From a virus, in IMG/VR virus record IMGVR_UViG_3300003323_001142, positions 26,297-90,296 of that record: a stretch of DNA of 64,000 nucleotides. One strand, written 5' to 3'. This document shows, in pieces, positions 2,829-63,066 of the stretch; positions within the stretch are counted from its first letter, which is position 1, and each line of letters begins with the position of its first letter. The notes under the pieces are model-generated. The model worked only from the letters and a program-made list of their open reading frames with translations, was not told the origin of the DNA and made no database searches. Position numbers and translations under genes: made by a program.

Positions 2829-3193
2829 CGATTCGCCTCCCCCCAAAACCTCTGCTCTTCGATCATCGCGAGCAGATCGCTCGCGAGCATCCCGTGCATC
2901 TCGGCCACGCTCTCGACCGAGTAGCGGTGGCCGTCGATCTCGAGGCAGGCGATGCCTCCGATGCTATTTTCGACGGCCATCCACTCGCGTCCGGCGCCGT
3001 CTTCATCCTCGAGAACGATCTCGTGTCGGGGCGAACTCGGGCCGATGTTGTCGAGCTCGTATAGCTCGAGCTTGGCGGCCCAGGCTTCGCGGAGGATGGG
3101 GGAGCCGAGGGACTCGGCGAGGGAGAGGTTGCGGCGGGCAACCCGGAGTTCGCTCTCTTGCCCTTCGATCGGTACGCTGGTACAGGATGCCAT
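2825..3193 (-). CDS. Hypothetical protein, first gene of the leftward operon
   Basis: ATG at 3193 with AAAGGA SD, directly downstream of PL. Confidence 0.65.
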   Translation of the reverse strand: MASCTSVPIEGQESELRVARRNLSLAESLGSPILREAWAAKLELYELDNIGPSSPRHEIVLEDEDGAGREWMAVENSIGGIACLEIDGHRYSVESVAEMHGMLASDLLAMIEEQRFWGEANR

Positions 3194-3837: not shown

Positions 3838-4380
3838 CTATTGTTTCTTTCGCCCGCTTGCTTCTACTGATTTTTTGTGCCGCGGGTCCGTGTCATTCAC
3901 GATGGGTGGATTTGTACCCACGCTCTGCTTGGTGTGCCGCGTGACCGCCTGGGCGATGACATCGTCCGAGCTCATCCGCCAGACCCAGTTCACCACAGCG
4001 GCGATGTCCTCAAGATCGTACTTGGTTTTTGATAGATACGCGGGCGTTTCCCCGGCAAGCATGAGCGCAGCGGGAGGAAAGTTCGTGTACATGGCCCGGA
4101 ACTTGTCCTCGAGCTTCGGCCAGTTGCCAGAATTCCGGTACAGCGGCACCGGCTGGTCGCCGACGAGGTCCACGTAGGAGTGGTAGCCGAGCAGCTTGGC
4201 GACCCGGATAGCCATCGCCACGCCGCATTTGCCGCCGCCCAGCACGAGCGAAATCATCTGCTGAGACACGCCGACCGCGTCCGCGAGCTCCTTCTGCTTC
4301 TCGTACCTCTTATTGAGCTCGCGTAAGGCGTCACGCAGGCGATCTGCTTCTGCGGGGGTCAGCGATTTCGGGGTGGCCAT
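3838..4380 (-). CDS. Phage repressor, XRE-family HTH (cI-like), no S24 peptidase domain
   Basis: KQKELADAVGVSQQMISLVLGG HTH; divergent from a cro-like gene. Confidence 0.85.
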   Translation of the reverse strand: MATPKSLTPAEADRLRDALRELNKRYEKQKELADAVGVSQQMISLVLGGGKCGVAMAIRVAKLLGYHSYVDLVGDQPVPLYRNSGNWPKLEDKFRAMYTNFPPAALMLAGETPAYLSKTKYDLEDIAAVVNWVWRMSSDDVIAQAVTRHTKQSVGTNPPIVNDTDPRHKKSVEASGRKKQ

Positions 4381-4439
4381 GTAGGGAACGTACACGCGGG
4401 GCCCACAAATACGCGGGAACAGTGCGGGCGATTTTAGGC

Positions 4440-4468
4440 TTGCATCGAAACAAATACGGTTGTACAGA
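4440..4468 (+). promoter_or_regulatory. Rightward early promoter PR with overlapping operator
   Basis: TTGCAT-N17-TACAGA; the spacer shares 14/16 nt with PL; opposite-strand TAAAAT at 4431-4436 could serve a PRM-like promoter. Confidence 0.7.
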
Positions 4469-4476
4469 AGAGCACT

Positions 4477-4791
4477 ATGCCGGCCAGGTCGACCAGAAAG
4501 AAGGAGCCGAGAGCGCAAAGGGCGATGAGGGTCGCAGGCGGTCCCAAGCTCGAAGAGTGGCGTAGGGAAAGGGGTTGGTCACAAGACGAACTCGCTACCG
4601 CGCTGACCTGCAGCCAACAGATGGTTTCAGCTCTATGCGGACAGTCGACCACGCCGGGAACGGATCTGGCCACGCGCATCCAGGTGGTCACGCGAGGACG
4701 GGTCAAGGTGCAGGATTGGCTGCCTCCCGAGGAACTCGAGCAAACGCGGGCGGCTGCTCGCCGAGCGCGGTCTGCGGGCCTGGGAGGCTGA
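4477..4791 (+). CDS. Cro-like XRE HTH protein
   Basis: LEEWRRERGWSQDELATALTCSQQMVSAL; ends in VKVQDWL, typical of Cro-like proteins. Confidence 0.85.
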   Translation: MPARSTRKKEPRAQRAMRVAGGPKLEEWRRERGWSQDELATALTCSQQMVSALCGQSTTPGTDLATRIQVVTRGRVKVQDWLPPEELEQTRAAARRARSAGLGG

Positions 4792-48940: not shown

Positions 48941-49065
48941 GCGAGGTTCTTCGGGTTGCGCGTGAGATCGCTGCGGAAAGGCCTGTCACCGTTGCGGATG
49001 TGAAGGCGTTCGCGTTGGCTATGGCCAAAGCGGCGACGGAGATGCGACTGTGCAAATCCGTATAA
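48937..49065 (+). CDS. 42-aa pre-TMP peptide (not in ORF track)
   Basis: ATGA coupling; MSEVLRVAREIAAERPVTVADVKAFALAMAKAATEMRLCKSV. Confidence 0.4.
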   Translation: MSEVLRVAREIAAERPVTVADVKAFALAMAKAATEMRLCKSV

Positions 49066-51341
49066 GGGTCGGCGCTGCTCGCGACAGCTCTTTCGACCAA
49101 GTCTTCAAGTCGATCGTCTCCGCCTCCAAAGAGGCCAACGCCCGCGTCACCGCCGACGAGCGCAAAAACATCACTCTTCAAGAGAAGATGATGCTGGAGA
49201 AGTGGTCCCAGCAGAAGATGATCCTCGCGGAGGAGATCCGTGAGACCAGCAAGGTCCACGACCACCAGCGCCGCCTGGAGACGATGGCGGCAAAGACGAA
49301 GCTCCAGCTCCGTGAGCTCGCGGCCAAACAGTCGGCCGACCGAGAACTCGCCATTGCCACGGAGTCGGCCAAAGCGAAGACCGCGATCGAAGTCGCGCAG
49401 GCCAAGGAAGCGTTCCGCAAGACCCGGGAAATCGAGGTCGCCTCAGCGAAGGCGGCCATGCGCGCGCAAGCTGGTGGGCCTGGCAGCGGTGGCCCCGGCG
49501 GCCGTGGGCGCGACTTCGCCTATCGGATGGGCTATTGGGCGAGCCGCAATCTTTCGCCAGTGACGCCGATGCTCGCCTTCGGGCAGCGGATGGCCTCCGA
49601 CATCGTCCGCGGCGCCGGCGTTGACTTCAACTTCGGCAACCTGATTTCGAACCGCGTCCAGGCGGAGAAACAGGCCGTGGCGCTCTCCAATGCCGCGTTC
49701 ATGCCCGGAGCAGAGGGCGCGGCGGGACAGCGGCAGGACCCGCGTACACTGATGCGCGAGGTCAAGGCTGCAGCGGACGCGACCGGGTTCGGCCGCAACG
49801 AAGGGCTCGACGCGCTCCAGAAGTTCGTAGGGGTGTCCGGGGATCTCGAGACCGGTCGAGCGGTCCTCAAGGACATGGCCACGCTCGCTCGAGCGACCGA
49901 CTCGTCGCTTGACGACATGGTCGAAGCCGCGGGCAACGCGGCGAACCAACTCGGCGACACCAAGGACAAGGGCGCGCAGCTTCACGCCATCATGGCGGCC
50001 GTTGCCGGCCAGGGGAAGATCGGCGCCGTCGAGATCAAAGATATGGCCCGGCAGATGGCCGCCCTAGCAGCTCAGGCGCCTATGTTCGGCGGGAACCCGG
50101 CCGACAACATCATGATGATGGGCGTGCTTGCGCAGGAGGCTCGCCAGCGCGGCGGTGCGAAGAGCGCGGCGCAAGCGACGACGGCCGTCACGTCCTTCGT
50201 CAACACGCTCACGAAGGGCGCTCGGCTCAAGGAGATGATGGCCGCTGGCGTCATCTCGAGCCCGGAGGAGATCCGCACGCTCGGTCCGCAAGAGCTCATC
50301 ATGCGGATGCTCCAGAAGACACAGGGCAAAGAGCTGCCCATGAACAAGCTCGTGATGGACGTACAGGCCAAGCGCGCCATCCGAGGCTTTCAGATTCTGT
50401 ACAACCAGGCCGGCGGCGGCGAAGCCGGCATCAAGGCCGTCGCTGCGGAGTTCGATCGCCTGAAGAAGGCGACGATGGGGAATGCTGAGATCCAGGACAG
50501 CTTCAAGGCTGCCATGGATACGACGACCACCAAGGCCCAGCTCTTCCAAAACAAGCTTCAGGACGTGGCCGATTCGATGGCCGAAAAGGCGTTGCCGGCG
50601 CTCGATCGCTTGGCGCCGGTGGCTCTCTCGGTGGTGGGAGCATTGGGCAGCCTGGTCGGTACGCTGGCAGACAACCCGCTCACCGTCATCCCGGTGGCAC
50701 TCGGCGCGGCGATTGCGAAATCGGGCGCCGAGCAGGCGGTCCGCGTCGGTATCGAGAACATCTTCCGCAACTTCACGACCGGTGGCCCTGTTGGCTTAGC
50801 TGGCAACGCTGCGGCCGCCCTCACGATCGCGGCTACCGCAGTCACCATTGCCGAAGTCGGCATGCTCTACATCGACAAGGTGATGGACGATGAGAGCAAG
50901 AAGCAGAGAAAGGCCATCGGCGAGCAGATCACCGCGGTCAACGCGGAATCCGATTACCGGGCAGCACTTCGCGAGTACAACAAAGAGGTGGCCGCTGGCG
51001 CGCCGACTCCGGAAGCGGCAAAGCGGCTCGAGGAAACGAAGAACAAGCTCCGCAGCGCCGCAGAGGGCCTCAAGCCCGAAGAGGGCCCTGGATTTCTGAA
51101 GTCACTCATGGAAGCCCTCCTCAACACGTCCGGCGGACCCATGAACTCGGCCGAGGCCGGATTCGTGAAACCCAACACGGGAACGAATCCAGAAGTCGAG
51201 GCAGAGCAAAAGCGCCGTCATCAAGAGTCGATCGCCGTGCAGAAGGAGTCGGCTCGGTTGCTCGCGCTGATTGCTGGCAGTAACGGACCACTCGCGCCCA
51301 TCGACGGCGGCAATCGCACTGGCGTCATGTCCTCGCCGTAA
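49050..51341 (+). CDS. Tail tape measure protein
   Basis: 763 aa, Ala-rich; DALQKFVGVSGDL..LARATDSSLDDM..GKIGAVEIKDMA core. Confidence 0.9.
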   Translation: MQIRIRVGAARDSSFDQVFKSIVSASKEANARVTADERKNITLQEKMMLEKWSQQKMILAEEIRETSKVHDHQRRLETMAAKTKLQLRELAAKQSADRELAIATESAKAKTAIEVAQAKEAFRKTREIEVASAKAAMRAQAGGPGSGGPGGRGRDFAYRMGYWASRNLSPVTPMLAFGQRMASDIVRGAGVDFNFGNLISNRVQAEKQAVALSNAAFMPGAEGAAGQRQDPRTLMREVKAAADATGFGRNEGLDALQKFVGVSGDLETGRAVLKDMATLARATDSSLDDMVEAAGNAANQLGDTKDKGAQLHAIMAAVAGQGKIGAVEIKDMARQMAALAAQAPMFGGNPADNIMMMGVLAQEARQRGGAKSAAQATTAVTSFVNTLTKGARLKEMMAAGVISSPEEIRTLGPQELIMRMLQKTQGKELPMNKLVMDVQAKRAIRGFQILYNQAGGGEAGIKAVAAEFDRLKKATMGNAEIQDSFKAAMDTTTTKAQLFQNKLQDVADSMAEKALPALDRLAPVALSVVGALGSLVGTLADNPLTVIPVALGAAIAKSGAEQAVRVGIENIFRNFTTGGPVGLAGNAAAALTIAATAVTIAEVGMLYIDKVMDDESKKQRKAIGEQITAVNAESDYRAALREYNKEVAAGAPTPEAAKRLEETKNKLRSAAEGLKPEEGPGFLKSLMEALLNTSGGPMNSAEAGFVKPNTGTNPEVEAEQKRRHQESIAVQKESARLLALIAGSNGPLAPIDGGNRTGVMSSP

Positions 51342-52286: not shown

Positions 52287-53453
52287 ATGCTATTCGAGCA
52301 GGGAGACCGCGTTCGACTTGTTGTCGACGGGCAGGAGATTGCTGTCGCCGAGTCGTACGAGGTCACCGCTTCGATCCTCACGCAGCCGGCCGCGTTCTCG
52401 ATGCGGCTCGGCCACGGCGGAGTTGCTCGTCAGATACTGAAGCGGTTTCGCCCAAACCTTCCCTTCCAGCTCTACATCGGCGAGCACATCCAGCAATCGG
52501 GTCGGCTCGAGGACCCAGGTGCGGAGAGCTCGGTCGGCGCCACCGAGGTCACGCTCAAGGGGCGGGATCTCCTCGCGGTGCTTCATGACGACGAGTTCAA
52601 TGCCGACACCGCGTTTCAGGATCAGACCTACGAGTCGCTCGTCCGCAAGCAGCTCGACGCGGTGGGGCTGAGCGAGCACAAGCTCGTTACGACGAACGAC
52701 GCCAACCGCCGAATCCTCACCGGCGAGAAGCAGCCGAAGACCATCAAGGCTCCGGTCATCGTCAACAAGCCGCTGACCGACACCGGCGAGAAGGATCTGC
52801 CGCACCAGACGATCCAGGCACGGCTCGGCGAGAAGCGCTACCAGTTCCTGCGCCGCTATCTCGACATGGCGAGTCTATTTCTTTGGACTGCGGCCGACGC
52901 GTCGTTCGTGCTCTCCGCGCCAAACGGCAATCAGCCGCCCATGGCGCGGCTGTCGAAAGCGCGCGGCGAGACGAGAAACCTCGTCAACATTCTGCGCTCT
53001 TCCTACAGCAACGGGACGGCGCACCGGCATCAGCTCTACGAAGTCTATGGCCGCACCGGCGGGCGAAAGGGCGGCCGAGCGAAGATCAAAGGTGTCTTCG
53101 TCGATCAGGAGATGAAGGACTTCGGGTTCGTCAAAACCCGAGCCATTCGGTCGAAGTCGGCTCGCACCGTCGAGCAAGCGGTCGCCATCGCGCGCCGCAA
53201 GTGCGCGGAGGAGCGCCGGCAAGACTGGCGGCTTTCGTACACCGTCGCGGGACACACGACGCCGAGCCTGCTCGGCGGCACCGCAGTGTGGGCGCCAGAC
53301 ACGGTCGTCGACGTGCAGGACGACGAGTTCGGTATCTCGGGCCCGCACTACGTCGAGACGGTCACGTTTCGGCGCGGACCGGAGACGACGACCGAACTCC
53401 AATTGATGCGGATCGAGGACCTCGTCTTCGGTTCCGGGCAGGACGACGACTGA
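52287..53453 (+). CDS. Baseplate hub (Mu gpP/gp44-like)
   Basis: LKGRDLLAVLHD..TVAGH..WAPDTVVDVQDD..TTELQL. Confidence 0.9.
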   Translation: MLFEQGDRVRLVVDGQEIAVAESYEVTASILTQPAAFSMRLGHGGVARQILKRFRPNLPFQLYIGEHIQQSGRLEDPGAESSVGATEVTLKGRDLLAVLHDDEFNADTAFQDQTYESLVRKQLDAVGLSEHKLVTTNDANRRILTGEKQPKTIKAPVIVNKPLTDTGEKDLPHQTIQARLGEKRYQFLRRYLDMASLFLWTAADASFVLSAPNGNQPPMARLSKARGETRNLVNILRSSYSNGTAHRHQLYEVYGRTGGRKGGRAKIKGVFVDQEMKDFGFVKTRAIRSKSARTVEQAVAIARRKCAEERRQDWRLSYTVAGHTTPSLLGGTAVWAPDTVVDVQDDEFGISGPHYVETVTFRRGPETTTELQLMRIEDLVFGSGQDDD

Positions 53454-55028: not shown

Positions 55029-56513
55029 ATGCCCGCAACGCTCGACGATCTGCCCGGCGCGCTCGACGTTCCGACGCGCGACGCGGAGCGCGACCGGTGG
55101 CTGCAAGACTACCAGTTTCGCGATCCTGGTACCGACACGTCGGCAGGGACCGAGCCGTACGTCCGCGGGAGCGTGTTTGCCGACATGGTGATGCCGCTCT
55201 ACGCGAACAGCGTTACCAGCGCGAACGCGACCGACCCAAGCAAGGTGTCGGGTCCGGAACTCGACGTGCGCGCCGGCGCCGTCATCGGGCCGAGGCTACC
55301 GCAGCGGCCCGGATCGGGTTCGGTCACCATTACCGCATCGGTCGGAGGCACGACGATCTTCGTCGGCGACGAGCTCACCGCCAACGGGCTGCGGTTCAAG
55401 TGCAACGCGACCGCGCTCTACAATGACGGCGACCAAGTGCCCGTCATCGGTATCGACGCGGGCCCGGCCACGAACCTCGCCCCCGGGACCATCCTCACCT
55501 GGTCGAATCCGAGACCCGGGTGTGGCCCGAACGCCACCGTCTTCCAGAACGTCGACGGTACCGGCTTCACCGGTGGCCGCAACGAAGAGACCGACGAGGA
55601 GTACCGAAAGCGCTGGACCCACGCGCTCCAGTCGCCCGCGGCAAGCGGCAACGATGCCGAGATCCAGGCGCTCGCGGAAGCCACCTTCGGCGTTCCGGTC
55701 GAGAAAGCGTTCACCTACCCGGCGATCCTCGGCCCCGGTACGTCGGGGCTTGTGTTCACGATCCGTGTGGACGCCCCGGGGCAGAGTCGGATCCCGGACG
55801 GGACGCAGATTGCGCTCGTGGCCGGCAACGTCTCGAGCGCGATGCCGGCCGACGAGGCGATCATCGCCTGCTCGCTCGGCTCGGTTCCGATCGACGTAAC
55901 GCTATCCATCACCTGGGACGACGGCGCTCCGGGCTGGCAAGACGCGACGACCTGGCCCCCGTACTACTCGGCCGGAGGGGCCATCAAGGTCACGGCCGCG
56001 ACGAGTCCCACGAGCTTCACGGTGAACGGGACAACCACGGTGCAGCCGCAGGTCGGACAGCACATCGCCGTCTACTCTCGGCCGACGGGGCTCTTTTTTC
56101 GGAAGACGATCCTGTCGTTCACCGGAACCGGCCCGTGGGTCATCACCTGCGACGCCACGAACAACGCGAGCGACCTTTCGTACACCCCAGTCGTTGGCCA
56201 GCGGGTATGCCCCTGGTCGGACTCGCTCCAGGACATCGTTTCGCCGATGTTCAACTACTTCAAGACGCTTGGGCCCGGCGAGCAGCTCGCGGTGTTCTTC
56301 GATACGGGCACGCGCCAGCGCAGGCAGCCCCAGAGCCCCCATTCGTGGCCGAGCGTGATTAGCAACAAGGGGATCGCGACTGCCATCGAGATCAGCTCGA
56401 TCTTTGACGCTGCGGTGCTTGAGCCCACGGTGCCGCTGGCGACGACGATCGGGAGCCAAGGCGTGATCAGCAACCTGATGGAAATGAACTTTCTGGCGGC
56501 GTTCCCGCAATAG
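55029..56513 (+). CDS. Baseplate J-like protein (Mu gp47)
   Basis: GPATNL..FTGGRNEETDEEYRKR..ASGNDAEI..AFTYP..GPGT. Confidence 0.92.
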   Translation: MPATLDDLPGALDVPTRDAERDRWLQDYQFRDPGTDTSAGTEPYVRGSVFADMVMPLYANSVTSANATDPSKVSGPELDVRAGAVIGPRLPQRPGSGSVTITASVGGTTIFVGDELTANGLRFKCNATALYNDGDQVPVIGIDAGPATNLAPGTILTWSNPRPGCGPNATVFQNVDGTGFTGGRNEETDEEYRKRWTHALQSPAASGNDAEIQALAEATFGVPVEKAFTYPAILGPGTSGLVFTIRVDAPGQSRIPDGTQIALVAGNVSSAMPADEAIIACSLGSVPIDVTLSITWDDGAPGWQDATTWPPYYSAGGAIKVTAATSPTSFTVNGTTTVQPQVGQHIAVYSRPTGLFFRKTILSFTGTGPWVITCDATNNASDLSYTPVVGQRVCPWSDSLQDIVSPMFNYFKTLGPGEQLAVFFDTGTRQRRQPQSPHSWPSVISNKGIATAIEISSIFDAAVLEPTVPLATTIGSQGVISNLMEMNFLAAFPQ

Positions 56514-56516
56514 CCA

Positions 56517-57008
56517 ATGCCGGTCCCTATCTACAACACCTTCAACGGCGACCCCGGCAACTCCGTTGCCCCGCGCCGCCCGTCGCTGAATGACATGGGC
56601 GGCGCGACCAAGGTGAACGCCGTCAATCCGCCGGACCCTGTGCGGATGCCGACTGCGCCCGAGGACAACCAAAAGCAGATGCAGGCGGTGTCCGTCGGCA
56701 AGGTTGTTCCGGTTTGCGTGGTCTCGGTCCACTTCTCGGGCGGCACGCCATCGGCGGCGCAATTCACCGCGGCGGGCGACAACATCACGATCCCGACGTT
56801 CACGGTGACCGACAACGGCGTGGGCGACACGACGATCTCGTGGCCGGCCAACACGTTTCCGCCGCCGGTGGTCGACCACGACGCCGCGGTGACCGGGGCC
56901 ACGGGTGGATTCGCCGCAGCGCAGACGCTCACCAATTCGGTCCGCGTCCGCACCTTCGGCACTGGCGGCAGCGCGGCCGACCTCAGCTTCAACGTCCGGA
57001 TCTACTGA
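56517..57008 (+). CDS. Hypothetical baseplate/tail protein
   Basis: Lies between J and the gp48-like gene. Confidence 0.65.
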   Translation: MPVPIYNTFNGDPGNSVAPRRPSLNDMGGATKVNAVNPPDPVRMPTAPEDNQKQMQAVSVGKVVPVCVVSVHFSGGTPSAAQFTAAGDNITIPTFTVTDNGVGDTTISWPANTFPPPVVDHDAAVTGATGGFAAAQTLTNSVRVRTFGTGGSAADLSFNVRIY

Positions 57009-57009
57009 C

Positions 57010-57978
57010 GTGCCGCTCTACTCCGCCTTCACACCGTTTGGGCTCCTGGACTACTCATCCGACCCATCGCCCGCCGAAAACATCTACAACGCCGGCGCCA
57101 AGCTCCTCGGGGCCCCGGAGAACTTCTCCCTTGAGCCTGGCTCGCACGCCGAGGCGATGCTCTACGCCGATGCGATGGGCCTGGCCCGCGTCTTCCAGAC
57201 CGATCGGAAGATGCGTAACCAGCTCGACCCGCTCAAGGCGACGGACATGCTGCCCGTGTACGAGGCAGCCTATGGCCTCATCCCAAAGCCGACGGACACG
57301 ATCCCGCAGCGTCAAGCGGCCCTCGCCTCCGCCATGCGAGCTCCGGAAGGGGCAACGGTCGCAGCGGTCACGGCGGCGCTTCAGGCGGCACTCGGAAGCG
57401 ACTTCGTCTCGTACCGGCTCACGCCGGTCAGCGAGATCGTGAACTTCCCCGCGAGCCCGGGCGACGCGAACAGCCCGAGCAAGTGGACCGACAAGGGCGT
57501 GAGCCCGCAAGTCGTCCGGTTGACCGGCGCGGTGGTATCGCTCGGGGTGCCGGTGGCGGTTCCCTACGAGACGATTGTGGATGCGGGAGAGCCGCGGATC
57601 TTGGTGGGGGAGCAGATTGTTGTGTCGGTCAATAACATTGGACTGGCAGAGCGCGTCAACATCACAGCGATCGGCGCTGGGACGTTCACGGCCACGTTCA
57701 CCAAGGTGCACGAGGTCGGGGACATCGCGACGACCGCCTACTTTCCGTTCTGGCGGACTACCAAGAAGCACTCGCTGGTCGTCCTCACCAGAGCGGCGAC
57801 GCTGGATCCGGAGAAGCGCCGTACCGTCAACGAGATCATGAAACGGATGGTCACCGGGTGGAGCACCTGGGCGATCTCGCCGAAGATCGACGGTACGCAC
57901 GCGGGCGGATTCATCGTGGATGACGCCACGCGCGGCCGCGTCGACTTCAACAACATCGACACGTTCACCTACCCGTAA
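57010..57978 (+). CDS. Baseplate protein (Mu gp48/DUF2313-like)
   Basis: NQLDPLKATDMLPVYEAAYGL..TIPQRQAAL. Confidence 0.85.
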   Translation: MPLYSAFTPFGLLDYSSDPSPAENIYNAGAKLLGAPENFSLEPGSHAEAMLYADAMGLARVFQTDRKMRNQLDPLKATDMLPVYEAAYGLIPKPTDTIPQRQAALASAMRAPEGATVAAVTAALQAALGSDFVSYRLTPVSEIVNFPASPGDANSPSKWTDKGVSPQVVRLTGAVVSLGVPVAVPYETIVDAGEPRILVGEQIVVSVNNIGLAERVNITAIGAGTFTATFTKVHEVGDIATTAYFPFWRTTKKHSLVVLTRAATLDPEKRRTVNEIMKRMVTGWSTWAISPKIDGTHAGGFIVDDATRGRVDFNNIDTFTYP

Positions 57979-57988
57979 AGCATAGCAG

Positions 57989-58840
57989 ATGGCGCATAAC
58001 GACTTCGTATTGGGTGGGTCCGGATCCGGAGCGTGGACAGGCACGCCAGTCGTCCACGCGATGATGGAGAAGTTCGATCAGCGCCAGTTCGAAGCCATCA
58101 ACGGGGACCTCGGGGGCACGTGGGCCCCGTCGTCGATCATCACGATCGGAGGGAGCGGCATCGCTCTCGCTGGCACGAACCATCAGGTCACAGGGACGCT
58201 TACCGTCAACAGTGGCGCGACGCTTCAGCTCGCATCCGGCTCGCTTGTCAACAGCCCGGGCGCGTCGCTGACCGGGACGTACACCTTCGGGCAGAACGCT
58301 GGCCCCGGCACGAATGCGACGGTCACGGTGAATACCGGCTCCTCGCTGGTGCTGCACTCGTCGGTGTCAGTCGACAATTCGACCTGGTCGATGGTGGGGA
58401 CCATCGTCAACATGACGAACGGCGGCGAGTTCAACATCAACGGCACCGTTGGCGGCGCACAAATCAACGCGACAAGCTGCGCAGTCGGGTTCACAAATTC
58501 GACGATCACCTATACGAATACTCTGATCAAGGGCGGTCGAGCCGACTATCAAGACATTGCAGCCAATCCCACATGGGACGCGAACCGAACTTTTACTGTA
58601 TCGGACGGTCGGATTATCGACGCGACCGCGATTACCGCGCCACACACGTGGATTTTATCAACCACTGGAGCCCTGAAGGGGGACAGGATCACGTTCGTGA
58701 ATCGAGGAAACACGAACATCGTGACTCTGCACGTGGGGGCAGCCACATATTCGGTCTACGTCAATGCAGGCAACAGTTACGAGGTTGAGTTCGTGTTCAG
58801 CGGCACGGCGTGGGTTCAGATCGGAGCGGCTGGCGGGTAA
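57989..58840 (+). CDS. Tail fibre (proximal) protein
   Basis: AINGDLGGTWAPSSIITIGG N-terminus; Gly/Thr-rich beta repeats. Confidence 0.75.
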   Translation: MAHNDFVLGGSGSGAWTGTPVVHAMMEKFDQRQFEAINGDLGGTWAPSSIITIGGSGIALAGTNHQVTGTLTVNSGATLQLASGSLVNSPGASLTGTYTFGQNAGPGTNATVTVNTGSSLVLHSSVSVDNSTWSMVGTIVNMTNGGEFNINGTVGGAQINATSCAVGFTNSTITYTNTLIKGGRADYQDIAANPTWDANRTFTVSDGRIIDATAITAPHTWILSTTGALKGDRITFVNRGNTNIVTLHVGAATYSVYVNAGNSYEVEFVFSGTAWVQIGAAGG

Positions 58841-58842
58841 GC

Positions 58843-59424
58843 TCAGAAGCTGAAGCCATCTGGCTTCTGGGCGTCGCACCCGAGCAAAAAGTTGACAGGG
58901 TCGATCGTGGTTGTTCGGGAGCACGTCGTGGTGTCAGCAATGACAACGCATTCGTCCGGAACCGAAATTGTGGCGGTAGCGGCGGCGTGACAATCGTAGA
59001 GCCACTTCGTGCCAGCGGAGCCGGAAACCTCGCAGCCCATCCCGTGACCCCACGAGCACGAGGCGCCAGATGGCTGGACACTGCCGGCATCGCCGCCAAC
59101 GTTGCCGCCAGATGAAGAGCCCCCGACCGTGTTCCCGGCTGAGCCTGTGCCACCGCTTGACGAATTGGCAGATCCCGTAGCCCCGGCAACGCCAGTAGTC
59201 CCCGTCGATCCAGTCCCGCCGCCGCAATCGCACATTCCCCAGACCCCGGACGAGCTGCATACCTGAGCTCCCGGCGTGGCCGTCCCTGGGCAGGCGCATG
59301 CTTCGGTCTTCCCCTCTGTGCATGTTGGCGAGACGCCGGGGTTCACGTCCCCATTGCCGTCTGACCCAGAACACCCCGCCAAAGCTAGAGCAAGTACCGC
59401 CGAAAGTTTCGTCCACGTTGCCAT
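58843..59424 (-). CDS. Cys-rich myxobacterial-type lipoprotein (moron)
   Basis: Lipobox LAGC; CTEGKTEACACPG..QVC..WGMCDC; Gly/Ser/Thr linker. Confidence 0.85.
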   Translation of the reverse strand: MATWTKLSAVLALALAGCSGSDGNGDVNPGVSPTCTEGKTEACACPGTATPGAQVCSSSGVWGMCDCGGGTGSTGTTGVAGATGSANSSSGGTGSAGNTVGGSSSGGNVGGDAGSVQPSGASCSWGHGMGCEVSGSAGTKWLYDCHAAATATISVPDECVVIADTTTCSRTTTIDPVNFLLGCDAQKPDGFSF

Positions 59425-59527
59425 CTATCCACGGTAACGTAGCGCCACGGCACTGCAAGGGGTCGCGGGTGTTCAGTAGCAGTCCCAACAGACCGCGCTG
59501 TAGCCTGATCGGTTGGAGGGACCAGCA

Positions 59528-60067
59528 ATGTGGTTCGTTTCAGCCGGTGGACAGCCAATAGGGCCGCTTGATGATCACGGCGTGATAGAGGCGATTCGCG
59601 GCGGCCTGCGGGCAACGCGGGTCACTCCTGCCGACCGCGCCGCTTGGGTACCGATCAACCAGCATCCGGTTTTCGGCTCGATTAGGCCGTCGGCGCCCGA
59701 TCAGCCCGAGGCGGTTGCCACAGTGGCGCTGGCCGTGCCGCTCCTCACGGCGCTCGCGTTCTGGTTCATCCCGATCGGAGGGATCGGAGTCTCGTTCATC
59801 AGCGCGGTGCTCGTCTCCGCCTGTCTGGTCGGAGCCGACGCTGCCGTGCTTGGCGCTGGCAGCCCCGACGAAAAAGGCAACGCCCGCACGGGCCCAGTCG
59901 CGTGGCTGTTATTCGCCGTGCTCCTGTGGCTCATTGCCCTGCCGATATGGATGTTCAATCGCGCCAGCTACGATGCGAAGGGGCGCGGCATCGAGGCGGT
60001 TCTCGTCGTGATCCTCTTTATGGGGAGCTGGGTCGCCGTGGTCGCTCACCTGGCCGGATTGCTATAG
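59528..60067 (+). CDS. GYF_2 (DUF4339) domain membrane protein (moron)
   Basis: WFVSAGGQPIGP..W.PINQHPVF; four TM segments; GPVAWLLFAVLLWLIALPIW. Confidence 0.8.
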   Translation: MWFVSAGGQPIGPLDDHGVIEAIRGGLRATRVTPADRAAWVPINQHPVFGSIRPSAPDQPEAVATVALAVPLLTALAFWFIPIGGIGVSFISAVLVSACLVGADAAVLGAGSPDEKGNARTGPVAWLLFAVLLWLIALPIWMFNRASYDAKGRGIEAVLVVILFMGSWVAVVAHLAGLL

Positions 60068-60096
60068 CGGAGAGCAGCGCGCGGGCGGAGAAGGCA

Positions 60097-60291
60097 TCAC
60101 TTCCCCAGATCCGGACGCTCCTTCACGGCTTTTTCGAGGATGACGCGGACCAAGTCTGAGCGACTCATCTTCGGCCAGGCGCGCTTCTCGTTCTCTTCGG
60201 CCAGCCACGCATCGAGCTGGCGAAGAAGCCCGACGGGCATCCGCACATTCATCGGAGCGTGCTCGGGCTCGGGCGCTGGCTTCCTGCTCAT
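60097..60291 (-). CDS. Ribbon-helix-helix repressor (Arc/Mnt/CopG-like)
   Basis: MNVRMPVGLLRQLDAW..MSRSDLVRVILEKAV. Confidence 0.85.
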   Translation of the reverse strand: MSRKPAPEPEHAPMNVRMPVGLLRQLDAWLAEENEKRAWPKMSRSDLVRVILEKAVKERPDLGK

Positions 60292-60301
60292 GGGCTGGGG
60301 T

Positions 60302-60319
60302 GTGTGAAGCATATCACAC
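60302..60319. promoter_or_regulatory. Palindromic operator matching the CRP/FNR-type box
   Basis: GTGTGA-AGCATA-TCACAC (TGTGA-N6-TCACA). Confidence 0.65.
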
Positions 60320-60356
60320 CGCTGTAACCACGAAAGGTACCTCTGCAACCGGGCGC

Positions 60357-60384
60357 TTGACACAAGCGACTACCGGTGTAAAAC
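60357..60384 (+). promoter_or_regulatory. Rightward sigma-70-type promoter (Pant-like)
   Basis: TTGACA-N16-TAAAAC. Confidence 0.65.
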
Positions 60385-60455
60385 GGGAGTAAACATAGGC
60401 GAGCCCGCCGCCAACTTTCCACGGGAGACGGCGGGCTCGCAGGAGGGTCACTCCC

Positions 60456-60869
60456 ATGCCCACGGTATCCCACCCCCGCGAGCCCAGCAAGCTCGCGACC
60501 ATCCACATTTTCCCCGCTCTCGCTCGGGCGCCCGAGCCGCCCCGAGCTAGCCGCCGGTCGGATGCGATCCTCAGCGAGGCCACCCGCTACGGCGAATCGC
60601 TCCGCGTCCGCTGGCTGTCCAACGAGCCGCTGACGCGCCGGGAGTTCGTCCGGGCCGACCGGCTGATCCAGCGGGCCTACCGGGCGCTCTGCACGGAGTA
60701 CGCGGCCAGCGGGCTCACTGCGGCCGACCGCCACTGGTTCATGGGCGCATGCACGGGGCTCGGGATGACCGACAGCTTCGTGTCCGACTGGCTGCGGGAC
60801 TCGGAGCCGGGGAAGGTCGTGGATTTGGGGAGGGCGCGGAGGGCGAGACGGAAGGGGGCGGGGCGATGA
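60456..60869 (+). CDS. Hypothetical protein
   Basis: AGGAGG SD; coupled to the antirepressor gene. Confidence 0.65.
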   Translation: MPTVSHPREPSKLATIHIFPALARAPEPPRASRRSDAILSEATRYGESLRVRWLSNEPLTRREFVRADRLIQRAYRALCTEYAASGLTAADRHWFMGACTGLGMTDSFVSDWLRDSEPGKVVDLGRARRARRKGAGR

Positions 60870-60898
60870 AGGGGCGGAAAGAGGGAAGCGAGGGATCG

Positions 60899-61687
60899 AT
60901 GCAGCAGTTGGAAAAGTACGAGTTTGACGGCGACCAACTCGACCTGCTCAGGCAGGAGACGCGAGTTGCGGTGGTCGTGCGCCGCGTTTGCGAAGCGCTC
61001 GGGATTAGCGAGGAACCGCAACGCCGTAAGCTTCGAGAGTGCGCATGGGCGCGCGCCACCATAATGGTGGCACACGACGCAAGCGGCCGAGAACAGGAGC
61101 TATTCTGCCTCGACCTCGACTCGCTACCGATGTGGTTGGCAACGATCAATCCGGGCAAGGTCCGGGAAGAACTCCGCCCCAAGCTCATCCGATATCAGCG
61201 GGAGTGCGCTCAAGTCCTACGAGATCATTTCTTGAAGGCGCCTAGCAAGCCGGCCGCTATCGATAGAGAGGAGCTCCTGGCGATACTGTCCGGCATGCTG
61301 GGCCCGAGCCTTGGTCAGATGCTCGACCGTCAAATCGCAGCCCGGCTCGACCCGGTCATCGCCAGGATCGAGTCTGCCTTCGGCACGGTCCAGCAGCACC
61401 CAGAGGGCCTACTCCCGCGCGCGGAGCTCAAAGATCACCCGACGGAGCTCGCGCAGTGCCGGAGTCTCATTACGCAGACGGCGAGAGCACTGGGCGTCAG
61501 TTGGAACAAGGTGCAGGGCGAGCTCCTGAAGAAATACCAGGTCCGTTCTTACCGCCGCCTTCCCTTCATGGTCTGGGATGCGGCGCGCGACCTCTTGATT
61601 GCAATGATGGCCGCTGCGCCCGTGCCCAAGAAAAACGCTCGCGGCTACCAGAGATCCCTGTTCGATTTCGCGCCGAAGCCGAACTAG
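60899..61687 (+). CDS. Phage antirepressor (P22 Ant N-terminal domain plus ORF6C-like C-terminus)
   Basis: VVVRRVCEALG..LPMWLATINPGKVREELRPKLIRYQRECAQVLRDHF; YQVRSYRRL. Confidence 0.88.
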   Translation: MQQLEKYEFDGDQLDLLRQETRVAVVVRRVCEALGISEEPQRRKLRECAWARATIMVAHDASGREQELFCLDLDSLPMWLATINPGKVREELRPKLIRYQRECAQVLRDHFLKAPSKPAAIDREELLAILSGMLGPSLGQMLDRQIAARLDPVIARIESAFGTVQQHPEGLLPRAELKDHPTELAQCRSLITQTARALGVSWNKVQGELLKKYQVRSYRRLPFMVWDAARDLLIAMMAAAPVPKKNARGYQRSLFDFAPKPN

Positions 61688-61788
61688 CGATTATCGCCAA
61701 TCCCTCTCTCCAAAGCGCCCTGCCGGCCAGCAACAGCCCGCGGGGCGCTCCTGCATCTGCCTCCTGACGAGACGCCAAACCCACCCGA

Positions 61789-63066
61789 ATGCCCGCCCCC
61801 GCCTTCGCCCGCGTCCTCGTCTCGCTGAACGGCGGGCCCCAGCAGACCGGCGACGTGGTCGCGCTCAACGGGGACGTGGTCCAGCTCTCTGCGCAGAGCG
61901 TCGCGGGATTCGACAAGTACCGCTGGGAAGTCTACAGCTACCCATCCGGGTGGAGTACCCCGGCCGGCTGGAATCTCGATAGCAGCACCGGCATCGTCTT
62001 CTCGACCGCGCTGTCGCCGCCTTCGTTCACGCTTCCAGCGCTCCCGCTATGGGGTAAGTGGCTCACGCGGCTCCTTATCAACGAGGCGCTCAGCAACGAC
62101 GAGGCGCGCGATCCGTCGCTGGGGCTGAACGACGAGTCCACGATCGTCAACGTCCTGTCTCCGAACAACCTGCGCGACACCGCAGGTCAGGAGACGACGC
62201 AGGCGGATGCCTTCCGAGGCTTCGTCGGAGACATTGCCCGCAACTGGCGGGTCATCGACGCGGCTCTCAGCGGCTTCAGCCCGATCGGTACGCTGACGCC
62301 GGGCCCGGGCAATACGCTTTTCGTCAACAACCCGGCCGGCAGCGCGGTCATCAATGCGCTGCTCGTCGACGCGAACGTCTCCGCGATCGCGGCCATCGCC
62401 GGGACCAAGATCTCTCCCAACTTCGGCCCCCAGGCCGTCGCCACCACCGGCACCCTCTCCGCCGGCAGCACCACCGTCTCCGCCCTCACCGTCGGCTCCC
62501 TCTCCGGCATCCTCCACGCCGCATCCGGCGTCATCTCCGCGAGCCCGGTCAGCCTCACCGCGGACGTTTCTGGGATTCTTCCGCCTCCCAACGGCGGCAC
62601 CGGACTCAGCGCCGTAGTGACCGGTCTCCTCGTCGGCAACGGTTCAACGTACTCAGGCGTCACCGCCCCCGACACCCGCATCCCCTTCTGGTCCAGCAAC
62701 ACCCTCAGCTCGAGCTCCGGCCTCACGTTCGCCAGTAGCACCCTCTCGGTCACCAACGTCACGATCGCGACGGCGCTGACCCTCTCCGCGCTCGCAGCAA
62801 CGAATGGCCCGCTCTACATCACCGGCGGCGTCGTCGGCGTCGGCCCAGGGGGCGCCGATGCCGCGACCAACATCAACGTCGCCGACCGGACCGCGCTCGC
62901 CAATCGCGACACCGCGAACCTACTCGACGGCTCCCTCGCCATCGTGCGTTCGCCAGTGTCGGAATACCAACTCGTCAAAACCAGCACGACGACGCCGGAC
63001 GGCTTCAGCTTCATTGCGGCCAAGAACGGCGGCGGAACGCTCGGTAACTGGATCCTGACCGACTGA
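61789..63066 (+). CDS. Tail fibre protein
   Basis: DANVSAIAAIAGTKISPNFG; VSGILPPPNGGTG fibre repeats. Confidence 0.8.
   Translation: MPAPAFARVLVSLNGGPQQTGDVVALNGDVVQLSAQSVAGFDKYRWEVYSYPSGWSTPAGWNLDSSTGIVFSTALSPPSFTLPALPLWGKWLTRLLINEALSNDEARDPSLGLNDESTIVNVLSPNNLRDTAGQETTQADAFRGFVGDIARNWRVIDAALSGFSPIGTLTPGPGNTLFVNNPAGSAVINALLVDANVSAIAAIAGTKISPNFGPQAVATTGTLSAGSTTVSALTVGSLSGILHAASGVISASPVSLTADVSGILPPPNGGTGLSAVVTGLLVGNGSTYSGVTAPDTRIPFWSSNTLSSSSGLTFASSTLSVTNVTIATALTLSALAATNGPLYITGGVVGVGPGGADAATNINVADRTALANRDTANLLDGSLAIVRSPVSEYQLVKTSTTTPDGFSFIAAKNGGGTLGNWILTD

Follow-up and report, generated by a model that had tools for sequence, protein, structure and literature searches.

In the phage P22 record (NC_002371), the immI region between gene 16 and tailspike gene 9 reads sieA(-), orf59a(-), mnt(-), a control region with Pant, arc(+), sar(-) and ant(+). 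Such Ant-bearing inserts, described by Villafane et al. as the 'ant moron', change fast within the late operons of P22-like phages, where ten types were distinguished in sixteen genomes, some of them without arc (PMC2629481). It is also established that an antirepressor acting on a non-cleavable repressor can drive prophage induction (Lemire et al. 2011, PMC3121763). Here we describe an immI-like accessory cassette of ∼3 kb (58843-61687) that an uncultured temperate phage carries amid its tail-fibre genes. The phage is represented by IMG/VR record IMGVR_UViG_3300003323_001142 (101,031 bp), and the window analysed is the 64,000-nucleotide stretch that spans bases 26297-90296 of this record. Unless a record or another locus is named, coordinates are those of the window.

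The cassette follows the Baseplate_J and gp48-like genes and precedes fibre-like genes. It encodes, in order, a lipoprotein (-), a GYF_2-like membrane protein (+) and a small leftward open reading frame (ORF), followed by a spacer of 165-200 bp and two rightward genes, orf137 and an ant-like gene (Table 1). The original prediction, made by a model from the sequence alone, had drawn a parallel with P22 immI. The order and orientations indeed parallel those annotated in NC_002371, and every element that it listed is present at or near the place assigned to it. Independent gene calls in a protein collection cover the lipoprotein, orf137, a 51-residue version of the small ORF and a 273-residue Ant. 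The GC content of third codon positions (GC3) supports coding for each cassette gene (0.75-0.90) except the lipoprotein (0.67), where a G/S/T-rich composition blurs the signal. Judged on these sequence features, the cassette is a genuine, well-formed element that probably functions. We read it as an independently regulated ant moron in the distal tail part of the late gene block, an interpretation that we hold at about even confidence. As a separate observation, GC3 in the cassette genes other than orf137 is 0.67-0.78, compared with 0.83-0.88 in the neighbouring baseplate and downstream fibre genes; this contrast fits a separate origin of the cassette or a different expression regime.

The Ant-like protein matches the P22_AR_N domain (PF10547) at E = 3.3e-31, with 108.3 bits against a cut-off of 30.7 and model positions 4-111 of 115 covered. 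A six-frame scan of the record returned it as the sole P22_AR_N match (108.9 bits). The family phrog_524 ('anti-repressor Ant') matches it at E = 2.9e-31, and BLASTP aligns it with P22 Ant at 36% identity over P22 residues 33-135 (E = 2e-14). The profile searches of 60899-61687, together with BLASTP, bear out the predicted P22-Ant domain, and by sequence comparison the N-terminal domain is homologous to that of P22 Ant. The C-terminal half does not align with P22 Ant; it carries a weak motif common to a subset of metagenomic homologues, and C-termini differ greatly from one family member to the next. Among database homologues the best reaches 43% identity, and 'antirepressors' of Gordonia and Mycobacterium phages cover 77% of the protein at 28-32% identity. 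Two starts come into question: the homologue alignment favours the ATG at 60899, which lies 29 nt beyond the end of orf137, and the gene caller favours the ATG at 60866, in a stop-start overlap with orf137 (ATGA). With either start, the arrangement indicates that orf137 and ant form an operon. Complex prediction of Ant (run with an alignment) and the repressor encoded at 3838-4380 scored 0.00 in both runs, which is evidence neither way.

The spacer ahead of this operon holds two palindromes, each a candidate operator. The first, GTGTGA-AGCATA-TCACAC, lies 11 bp from the ATG of the small leftward ORF at 60291 and has the core of a CRP-type box, TGTGA-N6-TCACA, of which it is the sole perfect copy in the 101-kb record (∼0.04 expected by calculation from composition). 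Candidates for its binder are a host CRP-family protein and the product of the small ORF. The second, the 15-bp CGCTTG-ACA-CAAGCG, encloses the -35 hexamer TTGACA of a putative rightward promoter and is unique in the record even when one mismatch is allowed. No k-mer of 7 or more is common to these palindromes and the spacer between the phage's CI-type and Cro-like genes. The uniqueness of both palindromes and the lack of anything shared with that spacer fit a dedicated local regulator and not control by the primary repressor. The calculated chance of finding TTGACA on either strand of a 165-bp spacer of this composition is ∼3.5%. Two side observations concern these elements. The centre of the CRP-type box lies ∼80 bp upstream of where rightward transcription presumably starts. 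Across the whole record TTGACA occurs four times on the plus strand and five times on the minus strand, compared with ∼11 per strand expected from composition, and most promoters of this phage may differ from the sigma-70 consensus type.

The leftward gene beside this spacer is our proposed repressor of the orf137-ant promoter. Its product probably has a ribbon-helix-helix (RHH) fold, an assignment in which we have fairly high confidence, and individually no line of evidence for the fold is significant. A profile search of 60097-60291 against Pfam, which the original prediction had suggested as a check, returned RHH_5 (E = 0.028) and RHH_1 (E = 0.055) and nothing else. In a six-frame RHH_1 scan of the record, the ORF was one of two matches (E = 0.025), the other being a bona fide RHH located elsewhere. 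Its PHROG matches were two 'transcriptional repressor' families at E = 0.03-0.06, with no others. The AlphaFold2 (AF2) monomer model places helices at residues 20-37 and 44-58, right after the sequence NVRMP, which would be the strand. The structural matches are weak and lean towards RHH proteins: Foldseek matched this model to NikR only in the PDB, and VIA matches (Z ∼3) include TraM-N, ParB of pCXC100, XACb0070 and MazE6-N. The ORF aligns with Arc and Mnt at an N-x-R-x-P strand and an AEEN helix cap, and contains nothing equivalent to the Mnt C-terminal domain. A word-indexed search gave no homologue and the PDB no sequence match, and the look-alikes in a protein atlas all scored <0.9. The predicted leftward RHH repressor agrees with the position and orientation of the ORF and with its RHH matches, which are consistent but all below threshold. 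A toxin-antitoxin reading of this gene was rejected: it is monocistronic and convergent with the GYF_2-like gene, leaving no toxin gene in its operon. The sole above-threshold RHH_1 gene of the record, at record positions 2856-2963 (-), belongs to the leftward early region outside the window and has no relation to the cassette.

The rightward operon opens with orf137, which has a GC3 of 0.90 and is, according to its model, an all-helical ORFan and not an RHH protein. The AF2 model is a generic helical bundle (predicted local distance difference test score 63) with no significant fold match by Foldseek. No homologue was found in a word-indexed search of 5.8 billion clusters or, with phmmer, among 1.84 billion representatives, and nothing usable came from PDB sequences, the protein atlas, Pfam, PHROGs or NCBIfam. 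Residues 88-117 have an HTH-like look by eye, which we do not advance as an assignment. Its leader, in contrast to shuffled controls, is highly structured: as plus-strand RNA it folds at -44 kcal/mol (z -3.85), with the perfect 12-bp arms enclosed by an outer helix GGGAGU:ACUCCC that abuts the Shine-Dalgarno (SD) sequence AGGAGGG (60441-60447) and the orf137 start codon (AUG at 60456). The minus-strand RNA folds at -46 kcal/mol (z -5.28) and is followed by UUUUAC. This minus-strand hairpin is complementary to the ribosome-binding site (RBS) of orf137, in a geometry like that of P22 sar, and is preceded by a weak promoter-like match only. By analogy one may hypothesize a sar-like antisense RNA over the orf137 RBS; the structure may be either a fold of the 5′ untranslated region (UTR) or the terminator of an antisense transcript. 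An Rfam scan of 58500-62200 at E up to 1 gave no family match.

In the left half of the cassette, the N-terminus of the lipoprotein, MATWTKLSAVLALALAGCSG, has L-A-G-C at residues 15-18 and fits the lipobox pattern [LVI][ASTVI][GAS]C. The protein has 13 Cys residues, 44% G/S/T and a G/S/T-rich linker, and matches nothing in Pfam, PHROG or NCBIfam; it is a candidate lysogenic-conversion or receptor-masking protein. An alternative frame at 58934-59488 (-) was rejected: its GC3 is slightly higher, but its translation is R/W-rich nonsense and the protein collection calls the lipoprotein frame. The neighbouring protein had been predicted as a GYF_2 membrane protein. Hydropathy agrees with the membrane part, giving about four transmembrane (TM) helices (strong at residues 88-106, 129-147 and 160-178, weaker at 68-86). 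The GYF_2 part (PF14237) is less firm: it covers model positions 1-48 of 50 at E = 0.0021, but its 18.2 bits fall below the Pfam gathering cut-off of 25.8. The cassette membrane proteins showed no homology to sieA or any known exclusion protein, and the label 'exclusion morons' is one that position and membrane localization alone suggest.

Homologues of the Ant-like protein place it in context (loci are numbered as in Table 1). They occur inside the tail or baseplate modules of at least five other metagenomic phages (L003/L004, L012, L013, L019 and L020). In several high-GC metagenomic phages (L003, L004, L005 and L019), the gene lies between a GpP/gp44-like hub, with one or two further genes, and GP46, behind an upstream spacer of ∼110 bp and with no regulator gene adjoining. 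In L020 it comes after a DNA_circ_N gene, and in L012 it lies upstream of a DUF2586 protein that we take to be the tail sheath. Other homologues occupy early or integrase-proximal regions and are sometimes coupled to a small DNA-binding gene. In L001 (635-889) and L018, for example, the closest Ant homologue (43% identity) shares its first 4 nt with the gene for an 84-residue protein that consists of LexA_DNA_bind only, and the pair has a tyrosine integrase beside it and a DnaB helicase gene downstream. At L025:5763-5957, a 64-residue ORF immediately precedes an Ant homologue on the same strand, an Arc-like position; by eye it looks RHH-like (an SFSLP strand and two helices), and it has no Pfam match.

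The ant moron reading translates into the following scheme. The lipoprotein and the four-TM GYF_2-like protein are encoded divergently from a short spacer of their own, and would most likely be envelope proteins that the prophage expresses, with a role in superinfection exclusion or in modifying the cell surface. The RHH protein would bind the palindromes of the orf137-ant control spacer, one of which covers the -35 TTGACA, and so hold the rightward operon off during lysogeny. Upon phage entry into a cell without RHH protein the operon would fire, and the Ant-like protein would then, in the manner of P22 Ant, bind and inactivate a CI-type repressor belonging either to this phage or to a resident relative. 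The stable leader over the orf137 RBS may add a post-transcriptional layer, whether by folding within the 5′ UTR or by terminating a short antisense RNA.

A number of observations weigh against this scheme. The RHH matches of the small ORF score 13-15 bits against cut-offs of 20.5 and 26, all of them sub-threshold, and its resemblance to Arc and Mnt does not reach significance (shuffle p of 0.07 and 0.02, respectively). The Arc counterpart implied by the predicted RHH-controlled layout is missing: the Arc position holds a helical ORFan, and Pfam Arc (PF03869) matches nothing anywhere in the record at E up to 1. For orf137, the lack of relatives leaves a role, and even expression, unsupported. 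Perfect inverted repeats with 6-bp arms are estimated to occur by chance about once per spacer of this size. At the TTGACA promoter predicted at 60357 the hexamer is present, but the -10 (TAAAAC) is poor, and its final base, C instead of T, is the reason why a consensus promoter scan misses the site. P22_AR_N is a shuffled module, so that its presence is no proof of antirepressor activity. Most tail-module homologues are without an adjacent regulator, which points to plain late expression and not to a repressed switch. Finally, the collections searched contain no close relative of the phage that might show conservation of the cassette.

The homologue survey bears on an alternative that we regard as rather unlikely, though tenable: the P22_AR_N protein would be a DNA-binding or other accessory protein expressed late or with the tail, serving for example as a regulator, in anti-defence or in interference between phages, and the RHH protein would merely tune its level. 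About half of the homologue contexts examined are co-oriented baseplate or tail inserts with no regulator nearby; only the N-domain is common to P22 Ant, and the C-terminal part is highly variable across the family. Such a role sits less well with the homologues that adjoin small DNA-binding genes near integrase or immunity regions. The divergent repressor-like gene and operator-like palindromes of the present cassette are likewise typical of a switch that is kept off. To our knowledge, the only characterized member of the family is P22 Ant, an antirepressor.

The original prediction had gone further and suggested that the cassette may be the real induction switch of the phage. In such a circuit, stress would lift RHH repression and Ant would inactivate a non-cleavable primary repressor, in the way of the LexA-controlled antirepressors of the Gifsy prophages. 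Its premise, a primary repressor without an autocleavage domain, agrees with family searches in which the repressor encoded at 3838-4380 showed an N-terminal helix-turn-helix (HTH) alone and no Peptidase_S24 match; the 160-residue gene downstream likewise gave no ImmA-type family match. Induction of this kind has its established precedent (PMC3121763), and the perfect CRP-type box, the sole candidate for a host input, could supply a host signal. The conclusion itself is unsupported, and we consider it distinctly unlikely. The cassette contains none of six LexA-box (SOS) types sought, namely those of E. coli, Cheo, alphaproteobacteria, Bdellovibrio, Geobacter and M. xanthus, and no sequence is common to its control region and the CI/cro operators. 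In that divergent spacer two direct copies of ACAAATACG stand 45 bp apart (4405-4413 and 4450-4458); these repeats are candidate operators of the primary repressor and are not present in the ant control region. A location in the late block, common to many homologues that are without regulators, fits a function at infection or late in the cycle better than induction. We know of no way in which RHH proteins sense a signal, and none is evident here. In P22 itself, moreover, immI is not the induction switch.

Fortuity is a further alternative. The cassette might consist of decaying or unlinked morons, in which the RHH-like ORF, the palindromes and TTGACA had come together by chance and formed no circuit. 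The sub-threshold RHH evidence, the weak promoter and the ORFan status of orf137 would agree with this, as would the want of relatives showing conservation and of any listed RNA run. Decay is nonetheless improbable given that all ORFs are intact with coding-type GC3, that orf137 and ant are tightly coupled behind a good SD sequence, that the leader is structured far beyond shuffled controls, and that the RHH ORF, one of two RHH_1 matches in 101 kb, falls exactly where a regulator would be expected. Least probable of all, and very doubtful in our view, is a three-layer switch that would combine RHH repression, a sar-like antisense RNA and a host CRP-family input at the perfect TGTGA-N6-TCACA box, make Ant, aided by orf137, the true trigger of induction in a large temperate phage with a CI-type repressor unable to cleave itself, and so tie induction to nutritional state and not to DNA damage.

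Table 1. Features of the cassette, its surroundings and the Ant-type genes of other loci (window coordinates unless a locus number precedes them)
Feature	Position	Strand	Remarks
Lipoprotein, 193 aa	58843-59424	-	Convergent with upstream fibre-like gene; signal peptide and lipobox LALAGC
GYF_2-like membrane protein	59513-60067	+	Likely start ATG 59528 after GGAGG; GC3 0.76
Small leftward ORF (probable RHH), 64 aa	60097-60291	-	51 aa from start 60252 (database gene call)
CRP-type palindrome GTGTGA-AGCATA-TCACAC	60302-60319		Core TGTGA-N6-TCACA; 11 bp from ATG 60291; candidate operator
Palindrome CGCTTG-ACA-CAAGCG	60354-60368		Candidate operator; contains -35 TTGACA
Putative rightward promoter	60354-60384	+	TTGACA 60357-60362, 16-nt spacer, TAAAAC 60379-60384
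Structured leader	60385-60454		Perfect 12-bp arms 60399-60410 / 60429-60440
orf137, 137 aa	60456-60869	+	First gene of rightward operon; AGGAGG 9 nt upstream
Ant-like gene	60866-61687 (273 aa) or 60899-61687 (262 aa)	+	P22_AR_N domain
Upstream flank, 283 aa	57989-58840	+	G/T/N-rich, beta-helix-like; directly after gp48/gpI-like gene
Downstream flank, 425 aa	61789-63066	+	Fibre-like; LPPPNGGTG motif
CI-type HTH repressor	3838-4380	-	Divergent from Cro-like gene
Cro-like gene	4477-4791	+	Divergent partner of HTH repressor
Tape-measure protein	49050-51341		Family match
GpP-like hub	52287-53453		Family match
Baseplate_J	55029-56513		Pfam family match
Mu gp48-like (gp48/gpI-like) gene	56905-57978		Family match
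Tail-fibre protein, 632 aa	L006:9732-11630 (window-equivalent 64535-66433)		phrog_7389 'tail fiber protein', E 2.7e-7
Ant-type genes	L003:6001-6729; L004:6001-6729; L005:406-1134; L019:1958-2872		Co-oriented in Mu-type baseplate cluster
Ant homologue	L013:5001-5753		Between baseplate-spike N-domain protein and sheath initiator; two minus-strand genes just upstream
Ant homologue	L012:5001-5828		Upstream of DUF2586 protein and tape-measure gene

The surroundings of the cassette are those of a temperate phage with, by its family matches, a contractile tail of the Mu/P2 type. Temperate life is evident because the record encodes a tyrosine integrase and a divergent pair of HTH repressor and Cro-like genes. 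The record is linear in the IMG/VR classification and 86% complete by the CheckV estimate. One root-metagenome DNA sequencing run, probably the source sample, contains 0.26 of the words of the stretch; no RNA run is among those listed for it. The insertion 'between two tail-fibre genes' that had been predicted agrees with the position and composition of the flanking genes, but neither immediate flank matches any family. The upstream protein is a putative tail fibre by its position after the Baseplate_J and gp48-like genes and by its composition, and gave no Pfam or PHROG match; the downstream protein gave no family or phage-record match. Further right lie a 66-residue gene, a 425-residue gene and a 632-residue tail-fibre gene that runs beyond the window end. 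The 425-residue protein (63256-64533) has a beta-helix look and is possibly a tailspike or depolymerase, judging by composition only, and the 632-residue protein contains PTTLSGYGITDAV twice.

Relatives of this phage are remote. Its terminase and Baseplate_J reach at most ∼26% identity to GenBank phages. A Baseplate_J query found no close relative in IMG/VR viral contigs or JGI metagenome contigs, a single-sequence Ant query none in viral contigs, and fibre queries gave no match among GenBank phages. The collections searched thus contain no close relative for a direct synteny comparison. The 'myxophage' host named in the original prediction is unproven, and the hints to the host are weak and mutually conflicting. 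The closest language-model look-alikes of the lipoprotein are Myxococcota clusters at 0.81-0.83, all <0.9 and thus a lead only. The Ant alignment found four loci among genome contigs, the top one labelled as a metagenome-assembled genome of an uncultured Myxococcia; this locus, low in GC and next to a transposase, is truncated where its contig ends and is uninformative on synteny or host. Among cultured phages, the best full-length Ant matches infect Gordonia and Mycobacterium.

Should the proposed circuit work, the P22-type secondary immunity layout would extend to a high-GC, contractile-tailed lineage of ∼100 kb from a root metagenome. A working circuit would further strengthen the case for late and tail operons as a preferred landing site of antirepressor morons across very different phages. 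Only orf137 and the stable leader RNA could reveal a new mechanism. The practical value of the analysis lies mainly in annotation, as five otherwise hypothetical genes receive a reasoned label.

The closest described counterpart is P22 immI, of which the cassette is a distant variant. Like it, the cassette lies inside a late, structural gene block beside a gene for host recognition (fibre or spike), and combines membrane or accessory genes, a small leftward gene for a putative repressor, a divergent control region and a two-gene operon that ends in ant. The Ant N-domains are homologous at 36% identity, and the small repressor has the N-x-R-x-P and AEEN pattern of Mnt and Arc, a similarity short of significance. 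The differences are equally concrete. Where P22 has arc, this phage has a helical ORFan of 137 residues; the C-terminal half of Ant and the membrane genes are unrelated to P22 Ant and sieA, respectively; the small repressor is without the C-terminal tetramerization part of Mnt, whose family membership is not demonstrable for it; and the control spacer measures 165-200 bp, compared with 90 bp in P22. The carrier is also not a P22-like podovirus, having a contractile Mu/P2-type tail and a genome of ∼100 kb.

Two other systems share single features. With the LexA-controlled antirepressors of Gifsy and Fels, the cassette shares the concept of a non-cleavable CI-type repressor and an antirepressor encoded outside the immunity region. 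Those antirepressors, however, are small, are not P22_AR_N proteins and are under LexA or phage-repressor control, whereas here there is no SOS box or shared operator. In the immI of P1 and P7 (c4 antisense RNA, icd, ant) and related RNA-gated antirepressor cassettes, a short ORF likewise precedes the antirepressor gene and a structured RNA overlaps the RBS of the first gene; unlike in P1 and P7, an antisense RNA here is hypothetical, and neither a match to Rfam C4 or related families nor a sequence relationship links the two. The resemblance to P22 had also been ascribed to convergence or old transfer. To speak of convergence overstates the case: Ant-type genes in tail and baseplate operons are a common, known pattern (PMC2629481 and the homologue survey above). 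The cassette is better seen as one more example of an insert type that is widespread.

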